The notes beneath the pieces were generated by a model that saw only the letters and a program-made list of their open reading frames with translations, was not told the origin of the DNA and ran no database searches. A program made the position numbers and the translations under genes. Shown here piece after piece: positions 27,493 to 51,427 of a DNA stretch of 64,000 nt. The first letter of the stretch is position 1; each line of letters opens with the position of its first letter. The stretch is from Acutalibacteraceae bacterium. Lineage in GTDB: Bacteria; Bacillota; Clostridia; Oscillospirales; Acutalibacteraceae. The stretch covers positions 3,190 through 67,189 of the forward strand of contig JAZQMA010000055.1 of NCBI GenBank assembly GCA_045543035.1, given 5' to 3'.

Positions 27493-27506
27493 TTTTTAAT
27501 GCGGAA

Positions 27507-28076: not shown

Positions 28077-28090
28077 TTATAATTTCAAAA

Positions 28091-30898: not shown

Positions 30899-30908
30899 CT
30901 TAAATGCA

Positions 30909-31216
30909 CCTCCATATATATATGACAAAAATCGACAAATACTTCACAAAAATTTTTATAAATATTTAAAATCGTGAAAATCAACAAAAAACAACACCGT
31001 GTTTCGTGCAACTACGACAACACGGTGTTGTTTTATATATCCCCATATGAAAGGAGTTGGTGATAAATATGAATCACCCGTAAAACCAAACAAAAAATAG
31101 GAGTTGATTTTAATGAATACAGGTAAAAAGCATCCGAGATTAATCGGTATGTCCCATCATGACGAAAGAGAACTGAACTCTATTGAAGAAGTTGCAAAAT
31201 ATATATGTGAAAAAGG
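30909..31216. repeat. ICE left-end control region (intact copy of the 23637-23932 repeat)
   Basis: Contains the 10-bp inverted repeat CAACACCGTG...CACGGTGTTG, a 4-codon mini-ORF (ATGAATCACCCGTAA) behind GAAAGGAG, and the start of the first ICE gene. Confidence 0.85.
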
Positions 31217-31721: not shown

Positions 31722-31767
31722 AAATGAGGTGTATAAAAACTAAATAAATAGGATGGTCGGATGCTAT

Positions 31768-32877
31768 ATGGCAATCCGATTTTTTGATATGTTTGCAGGT
31801 ATCGGTGGGTTTCGTTCAGGGTTAACTGCCATAGGTGGCTTTGAGTGTGTCGGTCATTGTGAAATTGATAAATATGCTAATGCTGCCTACTGTGCGATGT
31901 ACGAAACCGGAGGTGAGCAATATTATGAAGATGCACGGCAAATTAACCCCGAAGCCTTACCCGATTTCGACCTGCTCTGTGCAGGATTTCCTTGCCAAGC
32001 TTTCAGCGTTGCCGGAAAACGAATGGGATTCAGTGATACAAGAGGAACTCTCTTCTTTGATGTTGCCCGAATCCTTGAAGTTAAAAGACCTGCATTTGTA
32101 TTCTTGGAAAACGTTCAAGGCTTGTTATCGCATGACTCAGGCGAAACACTTAAAACCATCTACTCCGTGCTTGTTGAAATGGGGTATAATCTCGAATGGT
32201 GTGTGCTTAACAGCAAATATTTCGGAGTCCCCCAACAAAGAAGGCGGTTGTATATTATCGGATATCTTGATGGACGATGTACCGGACAAATATTTCCTGT
32301 CGAATGCTGCAATGGAGAAAATCTCAAGGAAGTCATTCCCGGCAGCCAAGGACAAAGAGTCTACGACATAACAGGTGTTTCGTGTACATTGTGTGCAGGT
32401 GGAGGTGGTATGGGTGGTAAAACAGGATTGTATTTCATTGATATGAATAGTGAACCTGTAATAACTCCCCAAGCACGATGCATAACTGCACGACAAGATT
32501 CAGGTGTAAGCAATCGCAGAGGAGAACATTCAGGTGTACTGATAGAAGATGCTCCGAGAGCAGTATTGACACCCGATAGAGAAAAGGTTCGTCAGCAAGG
32601 CAGACGGATGAAAGAACCCGATGAGGAAATGTTCACAATAACTGCTCAAGACAGACATGGCGTTTATCATAAGGGGAGAATCCGTAAGCTTATGCCCATT
32701 GAGTGTTGGCGTTTGCAAGGGTTTGAAGACAAACAATTTAATAAGGTTGTCGCATCCGGTATTAAGGATGGACAGTTATATAAGATGGCTGGTAACTCTG
32801 TGAGTGTACCGGTCATTTCTGCTATTGGCAGAAAAATAAGAGAAGTTAATGAAAAATATCAAATTGTAAAGGAGTGA
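31768..32877 (+). CDS. DNA (cytosine-5)-methyltransferase, no adjacent endonuclease
   Basis: Motif I is FDMFAGIGGF, motif IV GFPCQAFS, motif VI ENVQGL, motif VIII QQRRR and motif X GNSVSVPV. Confidence 0.9.
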   Translation: MAIRFFDMFAGIGGFRSGLTAIGGFECVGHCEIDKYANAAYCAMYETGGEQYYEDARQINPEALPDFDLLCAGFPCQAFSVAGKRMGFSDTRGTLFFDVARILEVKRPAFVFLENVQGLLSHDSGETLKTIYSVLVEMGYNLEWCVLNSKYFGVPQQRRRLYIIGYLDGRCTGQIFPVECCNGENLKEVIPGSQGQRVYDITGVSCTLCAGGGGMGGKTGLYFIDMNSEPVITPQARCITARQDSGVSNRRGEHSGVLIEDAPRAVLTPDREKVRQQGRRMKEPDEEMFTITAQDRHGVYHKGRIRKLMPIECWRLQGFEDKQFNKVVASGIKDGQLYKMAGNSVSVPVISAIGRKIREVNEKYQIVKE

Positions 32878-34730: not shown

Positions 34731-35711
34731 ATGAAAACCCCTGTATCAAGGGTTGGTAACAAAAGTTCAATACTCAACATTCTCTATGCTGTATTTCCTT
34801 TACAGTACGGCAGATTTGTTGATGTGTTCGGTGGTTCCGGTAGCGTCCTTCTGGGAAAAGAGCAGGTTGACTCCTTCGAGGTTTACAATGACTATGACAG
34901 GAATTTGGTAAACCTTTTCCATTGCATGAAGGAACGAACTATGGCAACAATTCGTGAAATCGGCTTTTGCAATCTTAACTCACGTGAGGATTTTAACTCT
35001 GTTAAAAAGTTCTTTGAGTTTGAAGAATTTAAAGATGATTTTTACAGAGAAGAATTACTGTTGACAGAACTGATGTTTCCACCACCCGAAGCAAATGAAC
35101 TTAATGAAATAAGAACTCGTATTACTAAAGACTATGATGTCCGTAGAGCAGCAATGTTTCTCAAACTCTTACGATACAGTTATTCAAGCGGCTGTAAGTC
35201 TTTTGCATCACAGCCATTTGATATACGAAAGTTGTTTGAGCTTATAAAACAACTTGAAAACAGAATGGCAAATGTAGTGGTTGAAAACCAGGACTTTGAA
35301 ACGCTTATAAAACACTACGACAGACAGGATACTTTTTTCTATGCTGATCCCCCATATTTTTCTACTGAAGATATGTATGCTGTAGGCTTTAACTGGAATG
35401 ATCACGTGCGCTTAAAGGATACACTTTCCAAAATACAAGGTAAGTTCTTGCTTTCATATAACGATTGTCCTGAGATAAGGGAACTGTACAAAGGCTTTTC
35501 TATGCTTGATTTTTCTCGTACTCATTCTATGGCACAAAGGTACGAAGCCGGAAAAGAATTCAAAGAGTTGCTTATATCAAACTATGACTTATACGAAAGA
35601 GAACGAAGCAAACCACAACAGTTAACCTTATTCAGTTGTTATGGTGATGATAAATATGATTATGAAAAAGTGTTAAAGGAGTGTATCGTCCAATGCAGAA
35701 TTCAGAATTAA
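34731..35711 (+). CDS. D12-class N6-adenine DNA methyltransferase (Dam-like), no adjacent endonuclease
   Basis: FVDVFGGSGSV AdoMet motif and the catalytic FYADPPYF (DPPY) motif. Confidence 0.85.
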   Translation: MKTPVSRVGNKSSILNILYAVFPLQYGRFVDVFGGSGSVLLGKEQVDSFEVYNDYDRNLVNLFHCMKERTMATIREIGFCNLNSREDFNSVKKFFEFEEFKDDFYREELLLTELMFPPPEANELNEIRTRITKDYDVRRAAMFLKLLRYSYSSGCKSFASQPFDIRKLFELIKQLENRMANVVVENQDFETLIKHYDRQDTFFYADPPYFSTEDMYAVGFNWNDHVRLKDTLSKIQGKFLLSYNDCPEIRELYKGFSMLDFSRTHSMAQRYEAGKEFKELLISNYDLYERERSKPQQLTLFSCYGDDKYDYEKVLKECIVQCRIQN

Positions 35712-37747: not shown

Positions 37748-38104
37748 ATGGCACAGAAAAAACAGCCACTTGTAAATGCGAAAATTGATCTCATGGTAAA
37801 TCAGGAAGATAGCAAAATCAAAGCATATGCCAGTGCAAATATTGCAGGTGCATTTGCTATTCACGGTCTTAAAGTAATTGACTCATCAAAAGGTCTCTTT
37901 GTTCAGATGCCTCAGAGCGTTTATACCAAAGACGGTGAAAAGAAATATAGCGATATCTTCCATGCTATTACGGCAGATGCAAGAAACGAAATTAATGCAG
38001 CCGTTCTTAAATCATACGAAGAAAGACTTCACATGGATGAAGCAGAAGCAATGAGTGAGCAGCCTGACGATGATGTCGAGGCTGCTTTTTCACAGTCAAT
38101 GTAA
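37748..38104 (+). CDS. SpoVG-family protein
   Basis: AYASANIAGAFAIHGLKVIDSSKGLFVQMPQ...DIFHAITADARNEINAAVL. Confidence 0.75.
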   Translation: MAQKKQPLVNAKIDLMVNQEDSKIKAYASANIAGAFAIHGLKVIDSSKGLFVQMPQSVYTKDGEKKYSDIFHAITADARNEINAAVLKSYEERLHMDEAEAMSEQPDDDVEAAFSQSM

Positions 38105-38130: not shown

Positions 38131-38352
38131 ATGTTTAAAAAAATCAAAGATAAGGTTATGTCCTTAAAAGCAAAAGCTGTTGAAGTTATCGAAACAAAAA
38201 CAGCAGAAACCTATGTTGATACAGGTGTCAAGGTTCTCATCGCAGTCGTAATCGGTGCTCTCCTTCTCACTCTTCTCTATGCCCTTTTTGAAGACACCAT
38301 CATGCCTTCTGTTGTGACAAAGGTACAGGAACTCTTCAATTATGGTGGATAA
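38131..38352 (+). CDS. Flp-like small pilin candidate, paralog 1
   Basis: 73 aa with a charged leader, then AETYVDTGVKVLIAVVIGALLLTLL hydrophobic helix. It lies directly upstream of a prepilin peptidase and Tad genes. Confidence 0.6.
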   Translation: MFKKIKDKVMSLKAKAVEVIETKTAETYVDTGVKVLIAVVIGALLLTLLYALFEDTIMPSVVTKVQELFNYGG

Positions 38353-38364
38353 TGAGGTGAGTTT

Positions 38365-38607
38365 ATGTTAAAACAGATTTTTTATAAATTACGTGAATTT
38401 ATAAAAAAGATACTAAACAGAATTTTAAACAAAATAAGGAATAAGTTTATAAACAAAAGTGCCGAAACTTATGTGAATTCAGGAGTTAAAATCCTCATCG
38501 CTGTAGTTATCGGCGCTTTGCTTTTAGGTCTTCTTTCTCCGCTTTTGGAAAATGAAATTATGCTTCCTGTTAAAGAAGGTTTTGAAGAAGCCTTCGATCA
38601 TTATTAA
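38365..38607 (+). CDS. Flp-like small pilin candidate, paralog 2 (divergent)
   Basis: 80 aa with the shared core AETYVNSGVKILIAVVIGALLLGLL. Confidence 0.55.
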   Translation: MLKQIFYKLREFIKKILNRILNKIRNKFINKSAETYVNSGVKILIAVVIGALLLGLLSPLLENEIMLPVKEGFEEAFDHY

Positions 38608-38628
38608 GAAAGTTTGAGGTAATTAAAT

Positions 38629-38850
38629 ATGTTTAAAAAAATCAAAGATAAAGTTATGTCCATCAAAGCAAAGGCTGTTGAGGTTATCGAAACAAAAACA
38701 GCTGAAACCTATGTTGATACAGGTGTTAAGGTTCTCATCGCAGTCGTAGTCGGTGCGCTCCTTCTCACTCTCCTTTATGCCCTTTTTGAAGACACCATCA
38801 TGCCTTCTGTTGTAACAAAGGTACAGGGTCTCTTTAATTATGCCGGTTAA
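38629..38850 (+). CDS. Flp-like small pilin candidate, paralog 3
   Basis: 73 aa, differing from paralog 1 at 4 residues. Confidence 0.6.
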   Translation: MFKKIKDKVMSIKAKAVEVIETKTAETYVDTGVKVLIAVVVGALLLTLLYALFEDTIMPSVVTKVQGLFNYAG

Positions 38851-38909
38851 CTAATACTTGCTCGGTGGGAGTATTAAAACTCCCACCAATCTTTTGAAAG
38901 GAGAATTTT

Positions 38910-39539
38910 ATGAATTTAATTGTTGGTCCGATTATGCCGAAAGTTATTGATGTAACAGTTGAAACACTTTGCAAGTTATTTGGTATATCGGTTATTCTTG
39001 GCGCAGTTGTATTGGCAACTGTATTGATTGCGAAATATGCCCTTAAAAGATGGGGTGGCGAGAAGGTAAAAACTATAGCAGGTTTTGTAGGCATCGGTCT
39101 CGGAGTAACAGTAGCTTTGCTGTGTTTTTTCGGATGTACCACTATGACGGTGCGTGGCATTTTGTTCAGCTTAATTCTCCTTTTAGCATCTTTTAGTGAT
39201 ATTAAATCAAGAGAATGCGATGACTGGCTCCATGTAATGATTGTTATAGTGGCATTCGTAGGCTTTGAATTATCCAGTATACCAAGCATGTTGCTATCTG
39301 CTTTCGTTATTTCCTTGCTGATGATATTAAGCATCTTCATAGGAAAAGGAAGAATCGGTGGTGCAGATATAAAGTTCTGTATCGCAAGTTCATTGGTGCT
39401 TGGTTTAAAGAACAGCGTTATAGGACTTACCTTGGGATTGGTGCTCGCAATTCTTATGAACATTAAAAGAAACAAAAAAGAGGGTTTCCCTCTCGTTCCA
39501 TATCTTGCCACAGGATTTATGGTGGCATATTTCATTTAA
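38910..39539 (+). CDS. A24-family prepilin peptidase (TadV/CpaA-like)
   Basis: Polytopic protein. The first Asp region is SFSDIKSREC and the second is GRIGGADIKF (GxGDxK-like). Confidence 0.7.
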   Translation: MNLIVGPIMPKVIDVTVETLCKLFGISVILGAVVLATVLIAKYALKRWGGEKVKTIAGFVGIGLGVTVALLCFFGCTTMTVRGILFSLILLLASFSDIKSRECDDWLHVMIVIVAFVGFELSSIPSMLLSAFVISLLMILSIFIGKGRIGGADIKFCIASSLVLGLKNSVIGLTLGLVLAILMNIKRNKKEGFPLVPYLATGFMVAYFI

Positions 39540-39557
39540 CAGGAGGTTATGTAAAAA

Positions 39558-40304
39558 ATGAAAAACAGAACAATTATAGGTATCATCTGCATGGCGCTTG
39601 CTGTTGTAATGACCTTCGTAGTTGCTCCTATTGTTACGAATATTACAAGCGACACAACAAAGATAGTACGACTTACACAGGATGTGAAACAGGGCTCACC
39701 CATTACAGAAGATGTAGTAGAGGTGGTTAAGGTTGATAAAGATTCAATCCCTTCAGGTGCTATTGAAGATAAAGCTGATGTCGTAGGTAAATATGCTGCT
39801 TCCAATCTGTATAACGGTGACTTCTTCACAAAGGATAAGCTCACCAAAGATGGTAATACTGCTGAAGATGTATTCGCAACACTTGACGGTAAACATGTAG
39901 CAATCAGCGTAACAGTAGACAGTCTTGCGGCAGGTGTATCAGGTAAGCTCCAGAACGGAGATATCGTAACATTCCTTATTGTCAACAACGACACTAACAA
40001 AGCAGTAACTCCTCCCGAACTTAAATATATGAAGGTTATAACCACAACTACATCGGGTGGTATTGATAAAGATGCAGTAATTAAGAATGAAGACGGAAGT
40101 TATGAACTCCCAAGTACAATTACTGTTCTTGCAAATACACAACAGGCAAAGTTACTTGCAGAATATGAAGGTAATGCAGAAATTCATGCGGCACTTGTAT
40201 ACAGAGGTGATAAATCAACTGCCGATAAGTTCTTATCCACACAGAATAGCTACTTTAAGAATAAAACAGAAACAACAACCGAAGGTGGTGCTGTGAATGA
40301 GTAA
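39558..40304 (+). CDS. CpaB/RcpC-like Flp pilus assembly protein (SAF domain)
   Basis: N-terminal TM helix, then VRLTQDVKQGSPITEDVVEVVKV SAF-like segment, in a Tad gene context. Confidence 0.65.
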   Translation: MKNRTIIGIICMALAVVMTFVVAPIVTNITSDTTKIVRLTQDVKQGSPITEDVVEVVKVDKDSIPSGAIEDKADVVGKYAASNLYNGDFFTKDKLTKDGNTAEDVFATLDGKHVAISVTVDSLAAGVSGKLQNGDIVTFLIVNNDTNKAVTPPELKYMKVITTTTSGGIDKDAVIKNEDGSYELPSTITVLANTQQAKLLAEYEGNAEIHAALVYRGDKSTADKFLSTQNSYFKNKTETTTEGGAVNE

Positions 40305-41019
40305 GTTTATTGCAGTTTGTGGCTCACCTGATAGTGGTAAAAGTTCTATTGCCATTAAGGTTGCACAGACCTTATATAACAAAGGAAAGAAAAGAGTCCT
40401 TTACTTTTCACCCGATTTGATGGTGCCTTGTATGGGTTACATCTTCCCTCATTGTAAGGGAAGTGATTTGTATTCAATCGGTAAGGTTCTTGATAAAACG
40501 GATGTGTATCGTGAAGATGTCCTTCGTAGCATTGTAACAACAAAGAATATGCCGAATTTCGGTTATTTAGGCTACAAAGCAAACGAAAACAAATACACAT
40601 ATGCAAGACCGACAGAAGACAAAATCAGTCAGTTGTTTATGAATATGAGAGAACTTGCTGACTACATAGTTATTGACTGTGTAAGCGACAGAAGTGACCT
40701 TATCTCTTCTCTTGCTAAAGCAGAAGCTGATGTTATTGTTCAGGTTGTAACTCCGACACTTAAATGCATGTCATACTATGCAGCTAACGGTGACCAGTTT
40801 ATTGCATTTGCAGACAAAGTGGTAAAGGTAATCAACATAAAAGATAATGATATCTATCTCCCTGTCGGTGAGGTCAAGGAACACTTTAAGGATGTTGTAA
40901 TCAAAATTCCTTACAGTCACTCCCTTAAACAGCAGTCTATCACAGGAACTTTATCAGAACATATCACCGATAAAGTCTTCTGCGATAGCATTTCGAGGTT
41001 AGCAAAGGTGGTGAGCTGA
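40297..41019 (+). CDS. ParA/MinD-like ATPase (TadZ/CpaE-like)
   Basis: AVCGSPDSGKSSIAIKVA deviant Walker A. It sits immediately before the CpaF gene. Confidence 0.55.
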   Translation: MSKFIAVCGSPDSGKSSIAIKVAQTLYNKGKKRVLYFSPDLMVPCMGYIFPHCKGSDLYSIGKVLDKTDVYREDVLRSIVTTKNMPNFGYLGYKANENKYTYARPTEDKISQLFMNMRELADYIVIDCVSDRSDLISSLAKAEADVIVQVVTPTLKCMSYYAANGDQFIAFADKVVKVINIKDNDIYLPVGEVKEHFKDVVIKIPYSHSLKQQSITGTLSEHITDKVFCDSISRLAKVVS

Positions 41020-42332
41020 TGAGCCAAATAATTGGTTTTTTCCCACTTCTTAATAGTGTACAGAAATATATCTCTGAAAACTATGCAGCTTCACTATCAG
41101 ACAAAGATAAATATGGTCAGTTGAGAACCTACATTGATAAATACTTGTATGACCACGATTATATGGTCGAAGGAATGAGCTTCAAACAACTGTCAGACAA
41201 GCTCTATTGTGAAATGGCTGAATACTCCATCTTAACAAAGTATTTAGGACGTGAGGATATTGAAGAAATTAATATCAACGGTTGGGATGATATTGCCATA
41301 ACATATACCGATGGTCACATTGAAAAGACTACGGAACACTTTTATTCACCACAACACGCTATTGATATTATCAAAAGACTTCTTCACCATTCGGGTATGA
41401 TTATTGATAATGCAACTCCTATGGCTCAAGGTCATTTGCCCGGTAACACACGAATCACAGCTCTTAAAGAACCTATTGTTGATGATGACATAGGTATCTG
41501 TGCATCAATCCGACTTTTGCACCCTTCAAGAGTTACAAAGGATGAAATCGTTAAAGGTAATAATGCAACACAGAAGATGATTGACTTCTTGTGCATGTGT
41601 CTCCGCTATGGTGTTTCTTTCGTTGTAGCGGGTGCAACCAGTTCAGGTAAAACAACACTCCTTAATGCATTGCTTTCAACAATTCCCGATAACAAGCGAA
41701 TATTCAGTATTGAATCAGGTTCTCGTGAATTATCTCTTGTTCGCAAAAATGATGATGTTACAACCAACAATGTAGTACATACATTATCAAGACCTTCTGA
41801 TAACGAAGCTTACGATATAACACAGGAAGATTTGGTTGTAGCATCCTTGCGATTCAACCCCGATATTGTAGTTGTCGGAGAAATGCGAGATACTGAAGCT
41901 TATTCTGCTGTTGAAGCATCCCTTACAGGTCATACTGTTGTATCAACTATCCATGCCTCTGCTGCCGATGCAGCTCATATGCGTTTAGCACTCCTTTGTC
42001 AAAAGCGTTTCCCTATAAACTTTAAGACATCGCTGATGCAGGCTGGTCAGGCATTTCCTCTCGTTGTTTACGCTCATAAGTTGGAAGACAATTCCCGAAA
42101 GATTATGGATATATCTGAATGTGTAATCACTCCTTCAGGCGAAAGAGAGTATCGCACATTATTCAGATACAATATTACAAGCAACACTATGCAGGGTGAT
42201 AACTACATAATCGAAGGTCATTTTGAACAACCCGAAATAATGAGTGATAATCTTAAACACAAGTTGATGCAGTTCGGTGTACCTCAAAGCGAGTTGAAAA
42301 AGTTCTTGCAGAAGGGAGCTGATTATGTATGA
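41019..42332 (+). CDS. cpaF: CpaF/TadA-type secretion ATPase (VirB11/PilT superfamily)
   Basis: Walker A GATSSGKTTLLNAL, Asp box/Walker B VVVGEMRD and His box GHTVVSTIHA. Confidence 0.85.
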   Translation: MSQIIGFFPLLNSVQKYISENYAASLSDKDKYGQLRTYIDKYLYDHDYMVEGMSFKQLSDKLYCEMAEYSILTKYLGREDIEEININGWDDIAITYTDGHIEKTTEHFYSPQHAIDIIKRLLHHSGMIIDNATPMAQGHLPGNTRITALKEPIVDDDIGICASIRLLHPSRVTKDEIVKGNNATQKMIDFLCMCLRYGVSFVVAGATSSGKTTLLNALLSTIPDNKRIFSIESGSRELSLVRKNDDVTTNNVVHTLSRPSDNEAYDITQEDLVVASLRFNPDIVVVGEMRDTEAYSAVEASLTGHTVVSTIHASAADAAHMRLALLCQKRFPINFKTSLMQAGQAFPLVVYAHKLEDNSRKIMDISECVITPSGEREYRTLFRYNITSNTMQGDNYIIEGHFEQPEIMSDNLKHKLMQFGVPQSELKKFLQKGADYV

Positions 42333-43255
42333 TTGTTTTTTCAATCATATCATGCATATGCGTTATAGTGGCAATTGCCTGTTTCCTTGACCTTACACCC
42401 GAAAGAGTAACGAATGATTTAATTCACATCATTACTCCTCACGATACCCTTCGTGAGAAAGCAAGGGCTATAAGAGGAAACAAAAAAAGACATGGTGTAT
42501 ATACCAAGCTTATGGAAATGAAAACTGCATTGGCAGTAACAGGTAAATCCAAAAACTTCGTAATCGTTTGTTTTTCTTCCGTTATCTTGTTTGCTGTTGG
42601 TGCATTCGTTGCTGTCCTTATTGATAACCTTTTCTTGCTCCCGGCTCTCTCAATATCACTTGCTTTAGTACCTTTTGTGTACACTGCAAATACTCTTGCG
42701 ATATATGAAAAAACAACAAAGGAAGAATTGGAAACAACTCTTTCAATTATCACAACATCATATATCCGTAATGATGATATTGTTTCGTCAGTAAGAGAGA
42801 ATATCCAGTATATAAAGCCACCTATAAAAGATGTTTTTATAGCATTTGAAACAGAAGCAACTCTCGTTTCATCGAATATAAAACATGCTTTATATAACTT
42901 GAAGGATAAAATTGATGATGAGATTTTCCGTGAGTGGTGCGACACCTTGATTCAATGTCAAGATGACCGAACATTAAAAGACACCTTGCTCCCCATTGTT
43001 GCAAAGCTTACTGATGTTCGTATAGTAAACAGCGAACTTAAAACGATGCTTTCTGCTGCAAAGAATGAGTATTGGGTAATGGTGTTATTGGTTGTCGGCA
43101 ACATACCCTTGTTATATATGCTTAACAAAGACTGGTTTAACACTCTGATGTATGAAACATCAGGAAAAGCCGTGTTAGGTATATGTGGCGTGGTAATTTT
43201 AATAACAGCTTTGTTCATGATGAAATTTACAAAGCCAATAGAATACAAACGATGA
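42329..43255 (+). CDS. TadB-like (T2SS-F family) membrane protein
   Basis: 308-aa polytopic protein overlapping cpaF by 4 nt, in the position of tadB. Confidence 0.6.
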   Translation: MIVFSIISCICVIVAIACFLDLTPERVTNDLIHIITPHDTLREKARAIRGNKKRHGVYTKLMEMKTALAVTGKSKNFVIVCFSSVILFAVGAFVAVLIDNLFLLPALSISLALVPFVYTANTLAIYEKTTKEELETTLSIITTSYIRNDDIVSSVRENIQYIKPPIKDVFIAFETEATLVSSNIKHALYNLKDKIDDEIFREWCDTLIQCQDDRTLKDTLLPIVAKLTDVRIVNSELKTMLSAAKNEYWVMVLLVVGNIPLLYMLNKDWFNTLMYETSGKAVLGICGVVILITALFMMKFTKPIEYKR

Positions 43256-43268
43256 GGAGGTTGAATAT

Positions 43269-44138
43269 ATGATACAAGCAATTGTCGGAATCCTTTGTGG
43301 ATTAGGTCTCTTTTATATCCTTGTTGATTTGTATGCAATCCCTTATTACAAAACATCAAAGGCTGTTGAATCAATCTCGAAACAACAGAAAGAAAAAACA
43401 TCGGGTCTTGATGTGTGGCTGAAAGGTGTGGCAGGTTTCTTTGCAAAGCACATGCGACTTAATGAGTTCAAAAAAGCTCAACTCCAGAACGACTTGAACA
43501 CGGCACAGATGAATATCTCTCCCGAAATGTTCAAAGCAAATGCGATTGTAAAATCTCTCATCATAGCTACATTTGCAATACCCGTGTTATTTATACTCCC
43601 ATTATTAAGTCCCATAATCCTTGTGTTAGCCATAGCGTTATATAACAATGAGGTGCGTTCAGTTTCAAAAAGAATAAAGGCAAAAAGAAGAAAAATTGAA
43701 TACGAGCTTCCAAGACTTGTCTTTACAATTGAGAAAACCTTGAAGCATAACCGAGATGTGTTATATATGCTTGATAGCTACATGGAAAGTGCCGGACCCG
43801 AAATAAAGCACGAATTAGAAATAACCGTAGCTGATATGAGGTCAGGTAACTATGAAGCGGCGATTACAAGGCTTGAATCCCGTGTAGGCTCATCAATGAT
43901 GAGTGACGTGTGCCGAGGTCTTATAGGCATACTTCGTGGTGACGATACAGAAATGTATTGGGCATCCTTATCAATCAAGTTCAATGACATTCAAAGACAA
44001 CAGTTAAGACTTGAAGCACAGAAAGTACCGAGAAAGGTAAAGAGATTGTCAATGTGCCTTCTCTTATGCTTTATGCTGATCTATGTTGTGGTAATCTTCT
44101 CGCAGATTATGTCATCTGTGGGCGTTCTCTTCACATAA
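43269..44138 (+). CDS. TadC-like (T2SS-F family) membrane protein
   Basis: 289-aa polytopic protein in the position of tadC. Confidence 0.6.
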   Translation: MIQAIVGILCGLGLFYILVDLYAIPYYKTSKAVESISKQQKEKTSGLDVWLKGVAGFFAKHMRLNEFKKAQLQNDLNTAQMNISPEMFKANAIVKSLIIATFAIPVLFILPLLSPIILVLAIALYNNEVRSVSKRIKAKRRKIEYELPRLVFTIEKTLKHNRDVLYMLDSYMESAGPEIKHELEITVADMRSGNYEAAITRLESRVGSSMMSDVCRGLIGILRGDDTEMYWASLSIKFNDIQRQQLRLEAQKVPRKVKRLSMCLLLCFMLIYVVVIFSQIMSSVGVLFT

Positions 44139-44150
44139 GGGGGTGTCGGT

Positions 44151-44555
44151 GTGTTTAAGTTAAATAAACGTGGCGAAGGCTACATCGACATCTGTGTCGG
44201 TGTAGTTGTTTTTGTAATGGTATTGGTGCTTTCGCTCAATCTGTTCAGCTTCATCACCTTAAAGGTAGAAATGGATCAGATAGCCGAGGAGCTTATAAAA
44301 TCGGCAACCTACACAGGAGAATTCGGTGACGAGTTTTGGGAAAGAGATTCGGATTTACTTGGTGAATATTATGACTATGATATCGAATACGGTGCTGATG
44401 AATGGTTCAACACATCACTTGAACGAGTGCAGCTCGGTGACAAAATGTGGATAACCATTTCAAAGGATACCTATGTACAGGGCTTGGGAGTTTTCAAAAT
44501 CCCGGTTACCGTAACAGTTACAAGGTCAGGTCTTTCCGAAAAGTATTGGAAGTAG
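44151..44555 (+). CDS. TadE/pseudopilin-like protein (DUF4320-like)
   Basis: N-terminus NKRGEGYIDICVGVVVFVMVLVLSL resembles a minor-pilin N-terminus. GTG start. Confidence 0.5.
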   Translation: MFKLNKRGEGYIDICVGVVVFVMVLVLSLNLFSFITLKVEMDQIAEELIKSATYTGEFGDEFWERDSDLLGEYYDYDIEYGADEWFNTSLERVQLGDKMWITISKDTYVQGLGVFKIPVTVTVTRSGLSEKYWK

Positions 44556-44563
44556 GTGGAATA

Positions 44564-45034
44564 ATGAAGAACAAACGTGGCGATGGATACATCGGAACAT
44601 GTGTTATGATTTTAATCCTATGTATGATACTTTCAATTTTTATTGAATTCGTTGCAACAGTAAATGTGATACGCATATCAGAAAGAAATGCCCGAATTGT
44701 ATTGGACAGTTTCGTAATGGAAAACTCAATTGAAATATATGATTCAATAAAAACAGGAACAGATTTTACAGAGGTTGTTGATGTTGAACAATATATTTCT
44801 AAATATTCTGAATATAATTCGCTGGACTTTAATGAAAATATGTTGTATTGTTGTGGTGACGATGGCGAAGAACTGTATCGGCAGACAATACCGACAGTTC
44901 AACTCATAGAGGAAAACAGACTTAAAATAATTGCTGAATATACGATAACAGTTCCTCTGTACTTCGCAGGTCAACAAGTAACTGAAGTGACTGTACCAAT
45001 AACAGTAACTTCAAAATTCAATCCGAAATTTTAA
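44564..45034 (+). CDS. TadE/pseudopilin-like protein, second copy
   Basis: N-terminus MKNKRGDGYIGTCVMILILCMILSIF parallels the previous gene. ATG at 44564 with a GGTGGA Shine-Dalgarno. Confidence 0.5.
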   Translation: MKNKRGDGYIGTCVMILILCMILSIFIEFVATVNVIRISERNARIVLDSFVMENSIEIYDSIKTGTDFTEVVDVEQYISKYSEYNSLDFNENMLYCCGDDGEELYRQTIPTVQLIEENRLKIIAEYTITVPLYFAGQQVTEVTVPITVTSKFNPKF

Positions 45035-45050
45035 TCAGGAGGCTGATAAT

Positions 45051-45725
45051 ATGAAAAACAAAAAGGTACTTATCGGTACAATCGTAGGCATCGTAGTGGT
45101 AGCTGTAATAATTGTGGCTGTAATCGGTCTCGGCAAAGACGAGAACAATACAGAACCTACAACAGAAATTACAACCGAAGAAGCATTAATCGAAATCCCT
45201 ACTGACATAGAGGATGACACAACAGAGCCTGAAACCTTGGTGGAAGATGACGATATGCTGAAAATCGAAGATGTCGATACAGTAACCGAAAAGCCAAACA
45301 CAAATGAAAATACGGTTAAGGTGGAAAAACCCGTAGAAGAAAATGAAAACAGAAACGATAATGCACAAGGTATTGTAATCAATGGTGATGCTGATACAAG
45401 CATCTACTCATGTGGCAAGAGTGGTCACCATTGCGAAAGCAAAGAAACCCATGACTTTATCGTAAGTCTCGAAAACAAAGGCTGTCACCACTGTGGTTCA
45501 CACTCATGCAAGAGCTTCTATACCACAGATGAATGGGGAAATGCATGTTACGATGAAACAAAATGTCCACAGTACGATGTGAAAAAAGATGCCTTGAAAT
45601 ACTGCCAAGATTGTGGTAAACCTACAGGGCGAGGTTACAATGGAACATGTACAAAATTCGTAGAAGATACAGTATGTCCCGACTGCAACGAACCAGTAAA
45701 AGCAAGGACTTGCCACTCACATTAA
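45051..45725 (+). CDS. Membrane-anchored protein with acidic linker and Cys/His-rich C-terminal domain
   Basis: A TM helix, a long E/D/T-rich linker, then about 16 Cys including CHHCGSHSC, CQDCGKP and CPDCNEP. Confidence 0.6.
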   Translation: MKNKKVLIGTIVGIVVVAVIIVAVIGLGKDENNTEPTTEITTEEALIEIPTDIEDDTTEPETLVEDDDMLKIEDVDTVTEKPNTNENTVKVEKPVEENENRNDNAQGIVINGDADTSIYSCGKSGHHCESKETHDFIVSLENKGCHHCGSHSCKSFYTTDEWGNACYDETKCPQYDVKKDALKYCQDCGKPTGRGYNGTCTKFVEDTVCPDCNEPVKARTCHSH

Positions 45726-45741
45726 AAAATAAACAAACATA

Positions 45742-45768
45742 AAGACCTGCTTCGGCAGGTCTTTTTTT
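45742..45768 (+). terminator. Rho-independent terminator
   Basis: AAGACCTGC-TTCG-GCAGGTCTT followed by TTTTTT. Confidence 0.85.
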
Positions 45769-45780
45769 ATTGACAGAAAG

Positions 45781-48700
45781 GTGTTGATTAATATAAAACG
45801 AGTAATTTCAATAATACTTGCCATAATCACAGTTATAAGTGTACTACCCACATCGGCATTTGCTCTCTCATGGGATGGTAGTTCTGTCACGGGTAGTAGT
45901 GCTACAGGTAGTGCGAGTGACCCTGGTTATGCCATAAGAACAGATAGCGATAACTGTATTGGTTATCGTTTCAGTTGTGTTAAATCAGATGGCTCAATGA
46001 AAGTATCAAAGGTAATTGATGTTTACAGAGATACAGGATATGGCGATCTCGGTTATTCAGACGGATATAAATTTACTACCAAGTATAGTAAGAAACAGTT
46101 AATATCAAGAAAGAACAACAGTTTCTCAACATCAGATAATACAACTAACTGTTATAAAGAAGAGTATATCCCATTTACGACTGCTTTACCTGCTCCATCA
46201 GGAATGGGTACATGGCAGACCTATAACGGTAATATCAATCAGATACTTTCTCGTTTAGGCGTTGGTAGTGTAAGCAACTTGAACTATGGTGATAAGGTTA
46301 TCGTTGAACCTATATACGACCTTTGCTTAAGATCAACCTACCATTCAGTTACCGTAACAGAATATGCAATTTACGGTAGATATTTACTTGGTGGTACAAG
46401 TACGGGTGGTTCTTCTTCAACCTCAAATACATGGGGATATATTTCAAGATTTACCAACAAAGAATTTCCCAATGAATTGTATACACCAAACGGACAAGGT
46501 CTGTGGACTGCTGCATCAAAGCTTACATCAAAAGAAACATTTAACAACTTAATTGATAAGGGTTATGGTGCAGGTATTGCATATACCGAAACAACCAACA
46601 AAACTTACAAAATCAAGTTTAATGGTAATGGTTCGACAAGTGGTTCGATGAGCGACCTTTCAATGGTTTATGGTACTGCAAAAAAACTTACCGCAAATGC
46701 ATTTAAGAAAACAGGTCATGAATTTGTTAACTGGAACAGAAAGTCTGACGGTTCGGGAACATCATATTCCAACAGACAGTCAGTTAACAACTTGACTTCA
46801 ACTCATGGTGCAACAGTAAATCTCTATGCACAGTGGAATCCGTATGTTCTTAAAGTATATTACGATGCCAATGGTGGTAGAATTGCATCATCAGACACAT
46901 ACAAGCTGAATTCTGAAGGTCGTGTGTATAAGAAAGCTGATAATGAGCAGTATTATCAGACATGGACATATAACAGTAAAAAGACCGATGGATTGGTAAA
47001 TGTCGGTACATTCGGAATTGCAAGAACAGGATATATCTTTAATGGTTGGTGGTGTACAACTGCCGATGGTGTTGGTCAGATTATTAACCAAAACAATGGT
47101 GATATAAAACCGACAGATATCAATCCCGACATTGCAAACGGAGACTGTTCAAGAAGAATGTATGCTCAATGGAATCCTATAAGGTATACTATTGCATTTA
47201 ACGGTAACGGTCATACAGGTGGTTCTACTACTGCTATGATATGTACTTACGATGTTGCAAGTAATCTTACTGCAAATGGATTCACAAAAATGGGCTATCA
47301 CTTTTTAGGATGGAATACAAAAGCTGACGGATCAGGCACAACCTATACAAACAGACAGTCAGTATTGAATCTCTCATCTACTCACGGTTCGACTATTACT
47401 CTTTATGCACAGTGGGAAACCAATGCATATTCCATAGGCTTTGATGGTAACGGACATACAGGTGGTAGCACATCAGGTATGACAATGAAGTTCGATGAGA
47501 GCAAGGCTCTTACTGCAAACGGATATACAAGAACAGGTTACACATTTAAGAACTGGAATACAAAAGCAAACGGAACAGGTACATCATATTCAAACAGACA
47601 AACTGTAAGAAACCTCACATCTACCAATGGTGGAACAGTTACTCTTTATGCACAGTGGAATCCTATAACTTACAAAATTGTATTTAACGGAAACGGTCAC
47701 ACAGGTGGTTCAACTGCTGAAATGGCAATGACATATGATGTTGCAGCTAACCTAACAGAAAATGGCTTCAGAAAAACCGGTTATGTATTCACTGGTTGGA
47801 ACACAGAACCCGATGGTTCAGGAACAAGATATACCAATCGCCAGTCAGTTATTAATCTGTCTTCAACAGAAGGTGCTGTAATTAATCTCTATGCACAATG
47901 GCGTCCGATAACATATACAATCAGATTTAACGGTAACGGTGCTACAAGAGGTACAATGGCAGCTATGGAAATGTTATATAACCAGGCCAAGAATCTTACT
48001 CCAAATGGTTTCACTCGACCAAGTTACAACTTCCTCGGATGGAACACAAGAGCTGATGGCTCAGGTACATCATATACTGATAAGCAGTCAGTAAGAAACC
48101 TTACAACAGAAGACGGTGCAACAGTTTATCTCTATGCACAGTGGGAATATGACCCTGAGCTCAATGTAAGATTGGTTCGAGTGTATGAGGGCGATAAGAA
48201 CAATACAGATTTCTATTACGGTTATTCAGAGGGTGAAACCTTCAATGATTACACATATAGAAATGGTTATCCATCAATGAAGGATATTGTGTGGTTCAAT
48301 GTAAAGTTCCCTTATGAAGCAGAAGAAATACGGGTAAAACAGTATGTAAGAACAGGTAGTTCAGCTTGGCAGACACGAATAGTTACATTAAGCAAAAACG
48401 ATGAGGGTACTTGCCTTTTCCCTGTACAGTTTACAGGTGCATATAAAACAATTAATGCAAGTACAGATAGCTTTGTAATTGAAGCTAAAATGGACTGGGT
48501 AGATGCAAATGGTACAGTAAGAAAAGCAGGTGCAATCCGTAGATTCTATGTTCCTGTTGAACCTACTGTCCACAGACATCGTGTAACTGCTTATGGCTAT
48601 GATGGTTCTGTTGTGGCTACTGCAGGTGATACTACAAGTGGTAAAATCTATGCAGGTCAGCGTGTTAAATTCTCCTACCACTACAAAATGGATAACACAT

Positions 48701-50238
48701 GGACTGCTCTTGAAAACTTGAAAGGTATAATGAAATATTGGAATGGCTCTTCTTGGTTGAAAGCCTCTTCAAGTGGTTATGATTTATCACAGCGTGTTCA
48801 TATGAACAAGAATAATCCTGTAACTGCAAATAGTACTCTTGATAAATACACTATCCCTCTTACTACAAAATTACGGGCGCAGTTAGAATCTGCATGGGCA
48901 AAGGATACAGAGCATACAACAGAAACAACTAACATTGATATTCCTGTTATAAAAGCTGACGTTGCATTGGCAGAAATCATCCTTATAGATGCAGATACAA
49001 ATGCAGTCCTCGATCCAAACAACCTTGAAGTATCACAGAAAGTTACAGTACAGTATGTGTACAAAAACAACACGGATACCAAGATTTTTGTTGAAGGCTT
49101 TAAGGATGACAAGTCACAAATCCCCGGTGTATTCGCTATACCTGCTAAATCACAGGCAAGAGTAAATGCATATACTTTCAAAGTTGCAAATACCCGTAGT
49201 TTTAATATTTGGGGTGGCGTATATCTCGAAGGTATGGGCATAGGAAACACAAAATATGAATCTAGCGGTAATAACAATGAAAAAACTTTAGTATGTAAGG
49301 TTAATCATCCGTTATCATTAATTCCTATTGCTCCCAATGCACCATACAGGGAAGGTACAGATATAATCACAAGTTATTGGCTCAACAACAGATGTGATAT
49401 CAACTATACACCCAATAGCAATATCACTCTTGAATTTAATATATATAATGGTCAGACTCTTGTTGATTCTATCAGTATATATGAGGCAATAGTACCTGCT
49501 GAAAACAAAAACTTAATATACTTCAAGTGGACAGTTCCCGAAGGTCTTAATGGTGCGAATATCTCAATTCATGCCGAAGTGGTTGAAGATGGTTTGTCAT
49601 ATAACAAGAAGATAACATCATACGAAACCACACCTTACAACATATCTGCTACACCCGATACTGACTTTGAAAAGAAAGCTCCTCGTGGTTTTTCTATCCC
49701 TTCTAAGTTAGAAACAAAGACAGGTGCGGCATCATGGTGGGAATGGAAATATGAGAACGGCACATATACAAAAGTTGACTATGCTATCGGTATTTCAAAT
49801 AACAGAGCTAACTTGACTCCTACTGCTGATTCAACAGCAGAGAAAAACGGTAGTATATGGACAATGAAATCAGGTTATGGTCTTACAATGGCTCTCAACA
49901 ATAATATGAGTGCTGTTACAGGCTACACTAAACCCGATGATACTGCATATACAACTGCACAGTATTGCAAGGCTCTCTTACCCGAATACAAGTATTCAAC
50001 AACTGAAAATGAATATAGAACACTCGGTAAAGATGGCTTGAAATGGGTATTCAGAACCAATGGCTCATATGGTAATGTTCACTTTACACCTATATGGTAT
50101 CCCGATGGCAAATACACTATCGGTATAGTTCAGAGTGATTGCTGGACACCTGCAGGTATGATTACAAGAAATGCAAACACCAACTCAATTGAGATATCTG
50201 AATCTGCATATGATGATTGGTATGTAGGTCGCAGATAA
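45781..50238 (+). CDS. Large secreted repeat adhesin (Listeria-Bacteroides/InlB B-repeat type)
   Basis: Signal peptide, then about 7 repeats of Y.I.FNGNG.TGGS...Y......L..NGF...GY.F.GWNT..DGSGT.Y.NRQSV.NL....G..V.LYAQW, then a ~700-aa C-terminal region. No LPXTG seen. Confidence 0.8.
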   Translation: MLINIKRVISIILAIITVISVLPTSAFALSWDGSSVTGSSATGSASDPGYAIRTDSDNCIGYRFSCVKSDGSMKVSKVIDVYRDTGYGDLGYSDGYKFTTKYSKKQLISRKNNSFSTSDNTTNCYKEEYIPFTTALPAPSGMGTWQTYNGNINQILSRLGVGSVSNLNYGDKVIVEPIYDLCLRSTYHSVTVTEYAIYGRYLLGGTSTGGSSSTSNTWGYISRFTNKEFPNELYTPNGQGLWTAASKLTSKETFNNLIDKGYGAGIAYTETTNKTYKIKFNGNGSTSGSMSDLSMVYGTAKKLTANAFKKTGHEFVNWNRKSDGSGTSYSNRQSVNNLTSTHGATVNLYAQWNPYVLKVYYDANGGRIASSDTYKLNSEGRVYKKADNEQYYQTWTYNSKKTDGLVNVGTFGIARTGYIFNGWWCTTADGVGQIINQNNGDIKPTDINPDIANGDCSRRMYAQWNPIRYTIAFNGNGHTGGSTTAMICTYDVASNLTANGFTKMGYHFLGWNTKADGSGTTYTNRQSVLNLSSTHGSTITLYAQWETNAYSIGFDGNGHTGGSTSGMTMKFDESKALTANGYTRTGYTFKNWNTKANGTGTSYSNRQTVRNLTSTNGGTVTLYAQWNPITYKIVFNGNGHTGGSTAEMAMTYDVAANLTENGFRKTGYVFTGWNTEPDGSGTRYTNRQSVINLSSTEGAVINLYAQWRPITYTIRFNGNGATRGTMAAMEMLYNQAKNLTPNGFTRPSYNFLGWNTRADGSGTSYTDKQSVRNLTTEDGATVYLYAQWEYDPELNVRLVRVYEGDKNNTDFYYGYSEGETFNDYTYRNGYPSMKDIVWFNVKFPYEAEEIRVKQYVRTGSSAWQTRIVTLSKNDEGTCLFPVQFTGAYKTINASTDSFVIEAKMDWVDANGTVRKAGAIRRFYVPVEPTVHRHRVTAYGYDGSVVATAGDTTSGKIYAGQRVKFSYHYKMDNTWTALENLKGIMKYWNGSSWLKASSSGYDLSQRVHMNKNNPVTANSTLDKYTIPLTTKLRAQLESAWAKDTEHTTETTNIDIPVIKADVALAEIILIDADTNAVLDPNNLEVSQKVTVQYVYKNNTDTKIFVEGFKDDKSQIPGVFAIPAKSQARVNAYTFKVANTRSFNIWGGVYLEGMGIGNTKYESSGNNNEKTLVCKVNHPLSLIPIAPNAPYREGTDIITSYWLNNRCDINYTPNSNITLEFNIYNGQTLVDSISIYEAIVPAENKNLIYFKWTVPEGLNGANISIHAEVVEDGLSYNKKITSYETTPYNISATPDTDFEKKAPRGFSIPSKLETKTGAASWWEWKYENGTYTKVDYAIGISNNRANLTPTADSTAEKNGSIWTMKSGYGLTMALNNNMSAVTGYTKPDDTAYTTAQYCKALLPEYKYSTTENEYRTLGKDGLKWVFRTNGSYGNVHFTPIWYPDGKYTIGIVQSDCWTPAGMITRNANTNSIEISESAYDDWYVGRR

Positions 50239-50249: not shown

Positions 50250-50597
50250 ATGCTTAAAAAGGTTTATATCTGTTCTCCTCTTGGTGGTAACATTGCTGTA
50301 AACCTTGAAAAAGCAAAACTGTACGCTAAATATGCACTTAAGTGTGGTACTGCTCCGGTAGTGCCACACTTTTATGCACTCTGTCTTAATGATGACGATC
50401 CAAGAGAACGAGAACTTGGTGTTACGGCAGGGTTAAGCCTTTTATGGTTTTGCGATGAATTATGGGTTTTCGGTGATGAAATCACAAGAGGTATGCAATC
50501 AGAAATTCGCTTCTGCGAAAATCTGAAAATACCCATAAAGTATATCAAAGAAAACAAAATATTTAATAAGTTAGGAGATGTTAATGATGAAAAATAA
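50250..50597 (+). CDS. DUF4406 / nucleoside 2-deoxyribosyltransferase-like small protein
   Basis: VYICSPLGG ... CDELWVFGDEITRGMQSEIRFCENLKIPI follows the pattern of NDT-like Rossmannoid proteins. AGAGGTGG Shine-Dalgarno. Confidence 0.5.
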   Translation: MLKKVYICSPLGGNIAVNLEKAKLYAKYALKCGTAPVVPHFYALCLNDDDPRERELGVTAGLSLLWFCDELWVFGDEITRGMQSEIRFCENLKIPIKYIKENKIFNKLGDVNDEK

Positions 50598-50922
50598 CAT
50601 TAAAAAAATTCTTCTTTGCATTGCAGTAGTAACTGTCATTCTCTCTGTTTTTTCAGTCACAGCCTTTGCGGCTGGTGATGTTGCAGGTGCAATTGAAGGA
50701 ACATGGGATGCAGCTCAGGGTCAGATTAAAGATGTTGTAAACAATGTTGTGTTTCCCGCTGTCGATTTAATCCTTGCTGTCCTTTTCTTTGTTAAGCTTG
50801 GTACAGCTTACTTCGATTACAGAAAACACGGTCAGTTTGAGTTTACTGCTCCAGCAATTCTTTTCGCATGTTTGCTCTTTACACTTACAGCTCCTCTTTA
50901 CATCTGGACAATTCTTTCATAA
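50584..50922 (+). CDS. TrbC/VirB2-like membrane protein (T4SS pilin-like)
   Basis: Signal peptide ending TAFAAG, then two hydrophobic helices, about 110 aa, sitting before the other T4SS genes. Confidence 0.55.
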   Translation: MMKNNIKKILLCIAVVTVILSVFSVTAFAAGDVAGAIEGTWDAAQGQIKDVVNNVVFPAVDLILAVLFFVKLGTAYFDYRKHGQFEFTAPAILFACLLFTLTAPLYIWTILS

Positions 50923-51340: not shown

Positions 51341-51427
51341 GACTACAAGTTTTGAATTTCCATTTTATTGTACTGACTGTGGTTTTTTAGTACTATTTTT
51401 CCATAACTAAAATTTGTGGAGTTTGTT

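Follow-up and report, generated by a model that had tools for sequence, protein, structure and literature searches.

A Tad-like pilus cassette in an exchangeable slot of an integrative and conjugative element from an Acutalibacteraceae bacterium: a candidate cell-contact module for DNA transfer

A 64,000 nt stretch of the genome of an Acutalibacteraceae bacterium (positions 3,190–67,189 of contig JAZQMA010000055.1, assembly GCA_045543035.1; hereafter the window, to which all coordinates refer) carries an integrative and conjugative element (ICE) whose transfer genes share a single gene train with a 12 kb cassette (38131–50238, plus strand), which comprises a complete, highly divergent set of Tad-like pilus genes and, after it, genes for a Cys-rich membrane protein and a giant secreted protein. 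The cassette occupies a slot that in most sister ICEs is filled by other surface-protein genes, its genes are under purifying selection, and relatives of it lie beside several kinds of DNA-transfer gene sets on plasmids of Clostridia. We propose, with a probability of about one half, that it serves DNA transfer as an interchangeable module for cell contact, by producing a filament that would establish contact between mating cells.

The original prediction, made by a reader who had only the sequence, placed a Tad-type gene set at 38131–45034, and every gene that it listed lies there on the plus strand; the unit nevertheless runs to 50238, taking in the genes for the Cys-rich and giant proteins. 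Genes in the train are separated by gaps of 8–60 nt or overlap. The cassette opens with three pilin candidates of family DUF6133, namely candidate 1 (38131–38352, 73 aa; Pfam E 2e-23), candidate 2 (38365–38607, 80 aa; E 1e-9), which is ~50% identical to the first, and candidate 3 (38629–38850, 73 aa; E 5e-23), which is 95% identical to candidate 1 and is a duplication of it, recognizable as a 237 nt direct repeat with 91% identity. Candidate 1 starts with a basic leader, continues with A↓ETYVD (the arrow marks the predicted cleavage site) and then has a segment with 20 hydrophobic residues out of 22; the general pattern of the candidates is a basic leader, [G/A]↓E-[T/G]-Y-[V/I]-D and a hydrophobic helix, with a predicted mature protein of ~47 aa. 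Flp prepilins are cleaved at G↓xxxxEY and yield a mature protein of ~50 aa. The DUF6133 candidates would fit this type in their size, basic leader, G or A at -1, acidic +1 and +5 residues, hydrophobic helix and tandem arrangement at the head of the operon. The three genes had been predicted to encode Flp-like pilins; as pilin candidates they stand, but their link to Flp is not shown by hhalign (probability 4%), and we therefore describe the predicted machine as Tad-like and of monoderm type, leaving its pilins unassigned to Flp. The pilin genes are followed by a plus-strand hairpin (38864–38887) that was retrieved in a scan for terminator-like structures as a consensus match only, and that might be an attenuator.

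The identities predicted for the next six genes were borne out by Pfam, TIGR03177, hhalign and relatives in the PDB. An A24 prepilin peptidase of the TadV/CpaA type (38910–39539, plus strand, 209 aa; Pfam Peptidase_A24, E 5e-10) lacks a methyltransferase domain and retains the catalytic residues D97 and D153 (GGAD), invariant across the seven sequences aligned, including canonical TadV. It is followed on the same strand by a CpaB/RcpC-like protein with SAF and RcpC domains (39558–40304; a TIGR03177 score of 74.5 bits, with the cut-off at 71; RcpC and SAF in Pfam) and by a TadZ/CpaE-like P-loop protein (40297–41019), with weak matches to MinD/ParA and an hhalign probability of 91.6% (E 8e-7) to canonical TadZ/CpaE. 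The secretion ATPase (41019–42332, plus strand; Pfam T2SSE, E 1e-31) belongs to the CpaF/TadA clade: among solved structures it is closest to three CpaF entries (102–103 bits, E 2e-28; 103 bits for 8rkd), ahead of archaeal GspE-type (81 bits), FlaI (72 bits) and VirB11 (56 bits) motors. It did not reach any NCBIfam equivalog cut-off, and a look-up of its exact sequence found no record.

The two platform proteins, both divergent members of T2SSF and encoded on the plus strand, had no sequence match in Pfam, NCBIfam or the PDB even at E ≤ 10. Profiles of the window proteins plus their plasmid homologs were compared by hhalign with small reference alignments, with canonical TadB and TadC drawn from annotated tad loci of Rhizobium, Photobacterium and Marinobacter; the reference profiles for TadB, TadC, TadZ and Flp contained only three sequences each. 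With these references, the TadB-like protein (42329–43255, 308 aa) matched canonical TadB with a probability of 97.1% (E 8e-11, 232 columns), and the TadC-like protein (43269–44138, 289 aa) matched TadC with 93.7% (E 2e-7) and TadB with 95.3%; there is a weak match between the two families as well (E 2e-4).

Two further genes had been predicted to encode TadE- or pseudopilin-like proteins. The first (44151–44555, plus strand) is a minor-pilin candidate of family DUF4320 (Pfam E 3e-29) whose N-terminus has KRG↓EGYID and a hydrophobic helix, and the second (44564–45034, plus strand, 156 aa) has KRG↓DGYIG followed by a hydrophobic helix. Both the motif and an alignment of the N-termini with TadE/TadF are compatible with the prediction, with no match at the level of families. 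The start of the second gene is most likely ATG 44564 and not GTG 44447. An AlphaFold2 (AF2) model of the DUF4320 protein from its single sequence shows a long N-terminal helix, with a mean predicted local distance difference test score (pLDDT) of 52, too poor for a fold search. In the six-frame translation of the 64 kb window, the motif [GA][ED][GT]Y[IV][DGN] occurs exactly five times against 0.03 occurrences expected from composition, bearing in mind that the pattern was built from the same five sequences and that two of the pilins are recent duplicates; the three pilin candidates and the two minor-pilin candidates account for all five copies, with a basic leader before them and at least 20 hydrophobic residues in the 22 that follow. 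The cassette contains neither the secretin RcpA/CpaC nor the pilotin TadD. Their absence is expected in a monoderm host and is common to other Tad loci of Gram-positive bacteria.

The rest of the cassette, also on the plus strand, comprises a gene for a protein that from its sequence is membrane-anchored and combines an acidic linker with a Cys-rich domain (45051–45725), a hairpin with a T-run, similar to an intrinsic terminator, that ends the pilus operon (45741–45764), and the gene for a secreted protein of 1,485 aa (45781–50238) with a Sec signal peptide and five matches to Pfam Flg_new (Listeria-Bacteroides repeats). The original prediction was thus correct in placing a giant protein next to the pilus genes. 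Near the cassette there are only three strong plus-strand hairpins: one follows the pilin genes (38864), a second the Cys-rich gene (45741) and a third comes after position 51931. The giant has neither a C-terminal transmembrane segment nor a sorting signal, and hence no wall or membrane anchor, and its conserved C-terminus is common to cassette-linked giants elsewhere; a single-sequence AF2 model of this C-terminus (pLDDT 36) was too poor for a fold search. Between positions 46687 and 48149, its gene holds at least five tandem repeats of 243 nt (81 aa), 66–82% identical, which are the Listeria-Bacteroides repeat domains. Homologs of the Cys-rich protein, with 36–40% identity, follow the cassette in another family of elements.

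Scanning one genome per species with the VirB6/TrbL protein of the window's type IV secretion system (T4SS) retrieved 80 loci, to which the window proteins were compared by tblastn; the 55 for which the upstream sequence was 8 kb or longer were considered informative. Most of the related loci are from metagenome-assembled genomes (MAGs), in which binning errors may affect species assignments. The cassette is present in 10 of the 55 informative loci and absent from the other 45. The ten Tad-positive loci, with a TrbL at least 94% identical to that of the window and 94–96% nucleotide identity with the window over ~21 kb, are a single lineage found in ten species-level genomes, mostly MAGs of Acutalibacteraceae, Eubacteriales and other Clostridia, several of them from ruminant gut samples. 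Subject to those binning errors, this distribution points to a recent spread of the Tad-bearing ICE between species. In the 45 Tad-negative loci TrbL is 64–69% identical to that of the window, and they have in common with it the backbone on both sides of the cassette: on the left, genes for a D12 methylase, AbrB, DUF3849, YodL/DUF3846 and SpoVG; on the right, those for DUF7768, DUF3852, TrbL, a VirB3-like protein, a 205-aa protein, VirB4 and the hydrolase. The slot is bounded by the SpoVG-family gene (37748–38104; Pfam E 2e-22) and the DUF7768 gene (50250–50597; Pfam), both on the plus strand and conserved in the sister ICEs, and spans 12.1 kb in the window.

What fills this slot varies widely. 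It is only 300–376 bp long in six of the 45 Tad-negative loci, and the short slot that we inspected (locus L038) contains only a stub of 101 aa with a signal peptide, a C-terminal hydrophobic segment and a charged tail. The remaining Tad-negative slots, of 3.8–7.5 kb, encode a lipoprotein and a protein of 1,085–1,753 aa. All the sister giants inspected (14/14) end in a sortase signal [I/K]PQTG[D/A], with one IPNTD variant, a hydrophobic segment and a KKKDDD tail, whereas the giants that follow a cassette (4/4) are all without an anchor and have in common another conserved C-terminus. Surface proteins are thus exchanged in the slot as at a hotspot, and, because 45 of the 55 relatives of the T4SS lack the cassette, this is an optional module that does not belong to the core of the transfer channel.

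Comparison of near-identical copies showed that the cassette genes are under purifying selection, with an excess of synonymous changes like that of the T4SS core genes: changes that were only synonymous and changes of amino acid numbered 274:62 in TadB, 137:19 in TadC and 94:11 in the DUF4320 gene, and 104:10 and 300:41 in TrbL and VirB4, respectively. Two genes evolve faster: that for the 156-aa protein, with 65:29, and that for the Cys-rich protein, with 62:50. Judged from these sequence comparisons, the cassette appears to be functional and spreading. The possibility raised with the original prediction that the Tad genes belong to a separate nested element found no support, and the idea of a nested transposon was rejected, since there is no recombinase or transposase gene between 38.1 and 50.2 kb and no direct or inverted repeats flank this region.

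The cassette of the window belongs to a large family. The clade of its ATPase includes at least 120 clusters (clustering at 90% identity), the best 120 of which are all at least 79% identical to the window ATPase, and the TadC-like family comprises 949 clusters at 50% identity. Among the contexts that we read, with flanks of 10 kb, and in a metagenome scan with TadC, the dominant arrangement consists of genes for ParA, ParB, sometimes SpoVG, the cassette, the Cys-rich protein, an anchorless protein of ~976 aa, LPD28 and a giant SNF2 protein. The ~976-aa protein is 41–44% identical to the giant of the window and has the same conserved C-terminus. Because these ParAB–SNF2 elements carry the cassette with homologous Cys-rich and anchorless partners, the window lineage looks like a recombinant that took up the whole unit in the adhesin slot.

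More distant cassettes, in which the ATPase is 34–46% identical to that of the window, the order of genes is unchanged and DUF4320 is again a partner, occur on complete plasmids of Clostridia; identity of the ATPase is 34–38% for the copies from Clostridioides difficile plasmids (37% for pHSJD-312) and reaches 46% for Terrisporobacter pTPHSE1. On pTPHSE1 the cassette is directly upstream of, and co-directional with, genes for VirD4 and a T4SS of the pLS20_p028 type; on C. difficile pCd5_2 and LIBA6289 it lies 6–7 kb upstream of a VirD4/T4SS gene set like that of pTPHSE1; on an Oscillospiraceae plasmid it precedes genes for a 1,610-aa protein and for DUF3852-TrbL-VirB4; on the C. difficile toxin plasmid pHSJD-312 it is ~4 kb downstream of PrgI-VirB4-NlpC/P60; and on Thermoanaerobacterium pMU3262 FtsK/SpoIIIE and replication-relaxation genes precede it by a few kb. 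On plasmids of Clostridia, cassettes are thus co-directional with neighboring gene sets for a T4SS or DNA transfer, of which there are at least three unrelated kinds. A megablast of the cassette against plasmids gave no match. A metagenome scan with one distant TadC-like protein, encoded on a contig of only 2.9 kb, found nothing; aligned with one another, the distant TadC-like representatives were too divergent for a seed.

Three of the plasmids (NZ_CP154620, NZ_CP037841 and NZ_MG973074) are called 'non-mobilizable' in PLSDB by MOB-suite. Two of them encode a VirD4-like type IV coupling protein (T4CP), a VirB6-like protein and a likely VirB4, with a MobP2 relaxase in addition on pTPHSE1, and the third, the toxin plasmid pHSJD-312, encodes PrgI, a likely VirB4 and NlpC/P60. 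The mobility of these three plasmids is probably underestimated. Gram-negative conjugative plasmids also carry Tad loci, as illustrated by Photobacterium damselae pPHDD1 (NC_014653), an MPF_F conjugative virulence plasmid with a canonical diderm tad locus outside its transfer operon.

Gram-positive conjugation systems are described in reviews from 2025 as encoding no pili and relying on anchored adhesins, of which LPxTG proteins such as PrgB are examples, and type IV pili encoded by plasmids are described as promoting mating (R64) or as essential for it (PAPI-1) (PMC12857230). Odd tad-like loci without a recognizable prepilin were reported in gut Clostridia (Imam et al., 2011), a 'tad-like locus' was mentioned on putative conjugative toxin plasmids of C. 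difficile (Ramirez-Vargas et al., 2018; PMC6141592), and Tad was found to be the type IV filament system most often present on plasmids (Denise et al., 2019; PMC6668835); none of the three connects the locus with conjugation, and the first two list it with no analysis of that connection, of the pilins or of exchange as a module. The author of the original prediction was aware of no functional description of a Tad locus combined with a monoderm T4SS; likewise, none turned up in open-access papers and preprints, where we also found no relevant paper on the DUF families. Element-encoded type IV filaments that assist conjugation are known, and the divergent and widespread cassette would add a variant to this kind.

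The likeness to the Tad/Flp systems, exemplified by tad of Aggregatibacter, cpa of Caulobacter and the monoderm Tad of Bifidobacterium breve, extends to an ATPase nearest to CpaF, two T2SSF-type paralogs, TadZ-like and CpaB-like proteins and a short A24 peptidase in which the two Asp residues are kept, as well as candidates for tiny pilins and for minor pilins resembling TadE/F, with one locus holding all of them. However, the platform proteins and pilins of the window are too divergent to be detected as Tad from their sequences in Pfam, NCBIfam and the PDB; the pilin candidates belong to DUF6133 and have the predicted cleavage motif [G/A]↓E-x-Y-x-D instead of that of Tad/Flp; secretin, TadD and TadG are lacking; and the locus is inside a conjugation train and coupled to a giant secreted protein. 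The 'tad-like locus' of the C. difficile clade C-I toxin plasmids pHSJD-312 and pHMX-152, like the odd loci of gut Clostridia listed by Imam et al., is of the same cassette family, with its gene order and DUF4320 partner, whereas the copy of the window is in a chromosomal ICE with a different T4SS. By functional analogy, the cassette might be compared to the thin pilus of IncI plasmids R64 and TP114, an element-encoded type IVb filament, separate from the T4SS, that promotes contact between donor and recipient and is conditionally needed, in liquid or gut mating; that pilus is nonetheless a diderm type IVb system with a PilV shufflon tip adhesin, while the predicted system of the window is Tad-like, monoderm and without a shufflon. 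Islands of the PAPI-1 and ICEclc type also have ICE-borne type IV pilus genes linked to VirB4 and T4CP, but the window element has a full monoderm T4SS and most of its sister ICEs have no pilus, which makes essentiality unlikely. Finally, PrgB of pCF10, an LPxTG protein, is encoded just upstream of T4SS genes, as is the sortase-anchored giant that sister ICEs have in the slot; the window has there a pilus machine and an anchorless giant instead of an anchored adhesin.

If the cassette serves mating contact, switching on the transfer genes would lead the peptidase to cut the leaders of its five putative substrates at [G/A]↓E-x-Y, and the CpaF-type motor and the TadB/TadC platform would then polymerize, across the cell wall, a thin filament that might be retractile. 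This filament, alone or together with the giant protein, could bind neighboring cells and bring them within reach of the T4SS (VirB4, VirB6/TrbL, hydrolase, T4CP and relaxase), which would then move the DNA. The cassette would stand in for the lipoprotein and sortase-anchored giant adhesin of the sister elements. Circumstantial support for such a role comes from the replacement of the slot contents, the recurrent linkage to T4SS genes and the T4SS-like synonymous excess. A broader version, which we hold only tentatively, is that a large divergent Tad clade is specialized as a Gram-positive mating pilus, in ICEs of gut Clostridia and in C. difficile toxin plasmids, and that this pilus is retractile, decorated with a giant adhesin and a replacement for sortase-anchored aggregation proteins.

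Several observations weigh against a role in mating contact. Most relatives of the T4SS manage without the cassette, so that any role in transfer would be conditional; in the commonest context, that of the ParAB–SNF2 elements, there is no T4SS gene within the 10 kb flanks; the proteins in the slot of sister ICEs are only presumed mating adhesins, and could equally be cargo adhesins for the host or for a substrate; the comparison of DUF6133 with the three Flp sequences was not significant; and the structure models of the giant C-terminus and DUF4320 are too poor to use. According to the main rival, the pilus and the giant are cargo of benefit to the bacterial host, a colonization or biofilm factor for mucus, plant fiber, host cells or kin that raises the fitness of its host and not transfer. 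We regard this as a serious, if on the whole unlikely, explanation. Tad pili are classic organelles of adhesion and colonization, the chromosomal Tad pilus of B. breve being essential for gut colonization in a study cited in PMC10832533; Tad loci are the most often plasmid-borne and the most transferred of type IV filament systems (PMC6668835); the plasmid tad-like locus of C. difficile was put beside putative virulence factors by its authors (PMC6141592); and the hosts are gut bacteria that carry the cassette as an optional part of this T4SS family. Yet the cassette is in the middle of the transfer train, between establishment genes and the T4SS, and not in a cargo region, it recurs next to several unrelated T4SS or DNA-transfer gene sets, and all the contexts examined for the divergent clade are plasmids or putative mobile elements. 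Moreover, cargo and mating roles are not exclusive, as PrgB has both.

The remaining explanations are much less probable. A device similar to the type II secretion system, in which a pseudopilus moves or presents the anchorless giant through the thick wall with no long adhesive filament, would account for the strict co-inheritance of the cassette with this giant and the Cys-rich membrane protein and for the display of the giant of sister ICEs by a sortase signal instead, and pseudopili for secretion are among the members of the type IV filament superfamily (PMC6668835); it is nevertheless improbable, because the giant has its own Sec signal peptide and is separated from the pilus operon by the terminator-like hairpin, some plasmid cassettes have no adjacent giant, and three tandem genes for major pilins suggest a real filament. 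Similarly, the filament machine might work with VirB4 and T4CP to carry DNA and be always essential, as was proposed for PAPI-1 (PMC12857230), and in fact the cassette adjoins T4CP and VirB4 on several plasmids and its ATPase matches NCBIfam TIGR03819 ('TadA family conjugal transfer-associated ATPase') with 131 bits, below the cut-off. Such an essential conduit is quite improbable because most relatives of the same T4SS (45 of 55, with the same set of TrbL, VirB4, hydrolase and DUF3852) have no cassette, and the window element has its own full monoderm T4SS. We give hardly any credence to a pilus for DNA uptake, akin to the Tad-like competence pili of Micrococcus or to the Com pseudopilus: some Tad/Flp systems do take up DNA (PMC6370729; PMC8513845), but the cassette encodes no ComEA, ComEC or DprA partner (the YpsA/SLOG protein at 51416–51931 matches the DprA family weakly), the ICE already has an export apparatus, and mobile elements usually antagonize competence (PMC12378983). 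Equally hard to sustain is the view of the cassette as an independent nested element or as a remnant in decay that at present does nothing for the ICE, for which the absence of the cassette from most sister ICEs and its presence in a different element backbone could be adduced. Besides lacking a recombinase, a transposase and flanking repeats, the cassette matches the rest of the ICE in its G+C content, has boundaries exactly at gene junctions, and consists of ORFs that are all intact, tightly coupled and under purifying selection.

How donors find and hold recipients is poorly understood in Gram-positive bacteria beyond the enterococcal PrgB, especially in the dilute and flowing environment of the gut. 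If the cassette does encode a mating pilus, it would be a widespread alternative to anchored adhesins, and, should the whole divergent clade be specialized in this way, the textbook notion of Gram-positive conjugation as 'pilus-less' would be wrong for a substantial share of elements. There is also a gap in annotation: the pilins stand under DUF6133 and the minor pilin under DUF4320, and no family covers the platform proteins; and, as some of the carriers are toxin plasmids, their potential for transfer matters for risk assessment.

The transfer genes proper are downstream of the slot, all on the plus strand. The T4SS set of the original prediction held for VirB6, VirB4, the relaxase, of the MobL family, and the T4CP, whereas its NlpC/P60 hydrolase is below the cut-off and its PrgI (52935–53195) is assigned from size and position only, with no family match. 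VirB6/TrbL (TrbL_5) is encoded at 51976–52920 (Pfam E 2e-125), a 205-aa protein and the VirB4 ATPase (53806–55641) in two frames at 53202–55641 (Pfam TraG P-loop, AAA_10 and DUF87), the candidate cell-wall hydrolase at 55641–56687 (weak NlpC/P60, Pfam E 4e-4) and the MobL relaxase at 59327–60703 (Pfam E 6e-28). The T4CP gene (62590–64000), found by tblastn with two VirD4-like plasmid proteins (E 8e-22 and 1e-24), is cut by the end of the window, its frame being open from GTG 62590 to that point. A DUF3991/Toprim primase is also among the genes downstream of the cassette. VirB4, T4CP, relaxase, VirB6-like protein and cell-wall hydrolase (the latter a weak match) are therefore present in one chromosomally integrated locus, as in an ICE; this assignment is from the window only, the integrase and the right end of the element being beyond it.

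The DUF3852 protein (50578–50922, plus strand; Pfam E 8e-49), with a signal peptide and a two-transmembrane hairpin, would have a VirB2-like topology: two transmembrane helices linked by a short basic loop, as in the VirB2/TrbC pilins. In all sister ICEs, as on the Oscillospiraceae plasmid, its gene is conserved immediately upstream of TrbL. T4SSs of Gram-positive bacteria are said to be without VirB2 homologs. In the window, the VirB4 region consists of separate overlapping ORFs of 205 and 611 aa, and in a sister ICE from an isolate genome (locus L039, 11551–14927) there are three ORFs, of 221, 255 and 647 aa, the middle one of which is missing from the window. The split thus looks native and not like an artifact from a frameshift, and the idea that VirB4 is a pseudogene was rejected, because sister elements in isolate genomes also have separate ORFs. 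Interspersed among the transfer genes are those for the YpsA/SLOG protein (51416–51931), which has only weak ShosA and DprA-family matches, a pentapeptide-repeat protein (57271–58338) and a DUF3800 protein (60796–61626); the YpsA and DUF3800 genes are missing from most sister ICEs.

The first 18 kb of the window are ordinary chromosomal genes of an anaerobic spore-former, including those for Tex, hydrogenase subunits and the maturase HydF, and end in a truncated spoVAD (18230–18973, plus strand) whose Pfam SpoVAD match covers only profile positions 1–207 of 329. The G+C content drops from 0.41 to 0.27 just 3′ of it (break at ~18.9 kb); from the truncation and this drop, the foreign DNA starts at ~18.9 kb and continues past 64 kb. 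The probable left junction of the inserted DNA is thus spoVAD, whose truncation suggests that the element sits in a sporulation gene. The foreign DNA has two parts, a low-G+C block of ORFans (19–31 kb) and the element proper (31–64 kb), with a G+C content of 0.35–0.41. The block (19000–31000, ~12 kb; G+C 0.27–0.31) encodes nearly exclusively ORFans, such as minus-strand proteins of 821 and 469 aa, as well as a tRNA-Ala(GGC) (24047–24122) and a CapP/M78-type peptidase (26683–27492); a search of it with PADLOC and Pfam identified nothing beyond this peptidase, and it may be a separate island or defense cargo. From 31.1 kb to the end of the window, the plus strand is a single tightly packed and co-oriented gene train, which opens with the establishment genes of the element: DUF4314, two orphan methyltransferases, LPD28, AbrB/MazE, DUF3849, YodL/DUF3846 and SpoVG. 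The two orphan methyltransferases, a C5-cytosine (31753–32877) and a D12 N6-adenine (34731–35711) enzyme encoded beside LPD28, DUF3849 and YodL/DUF3846, are probably anti-restriction functions of the incoming DNA.

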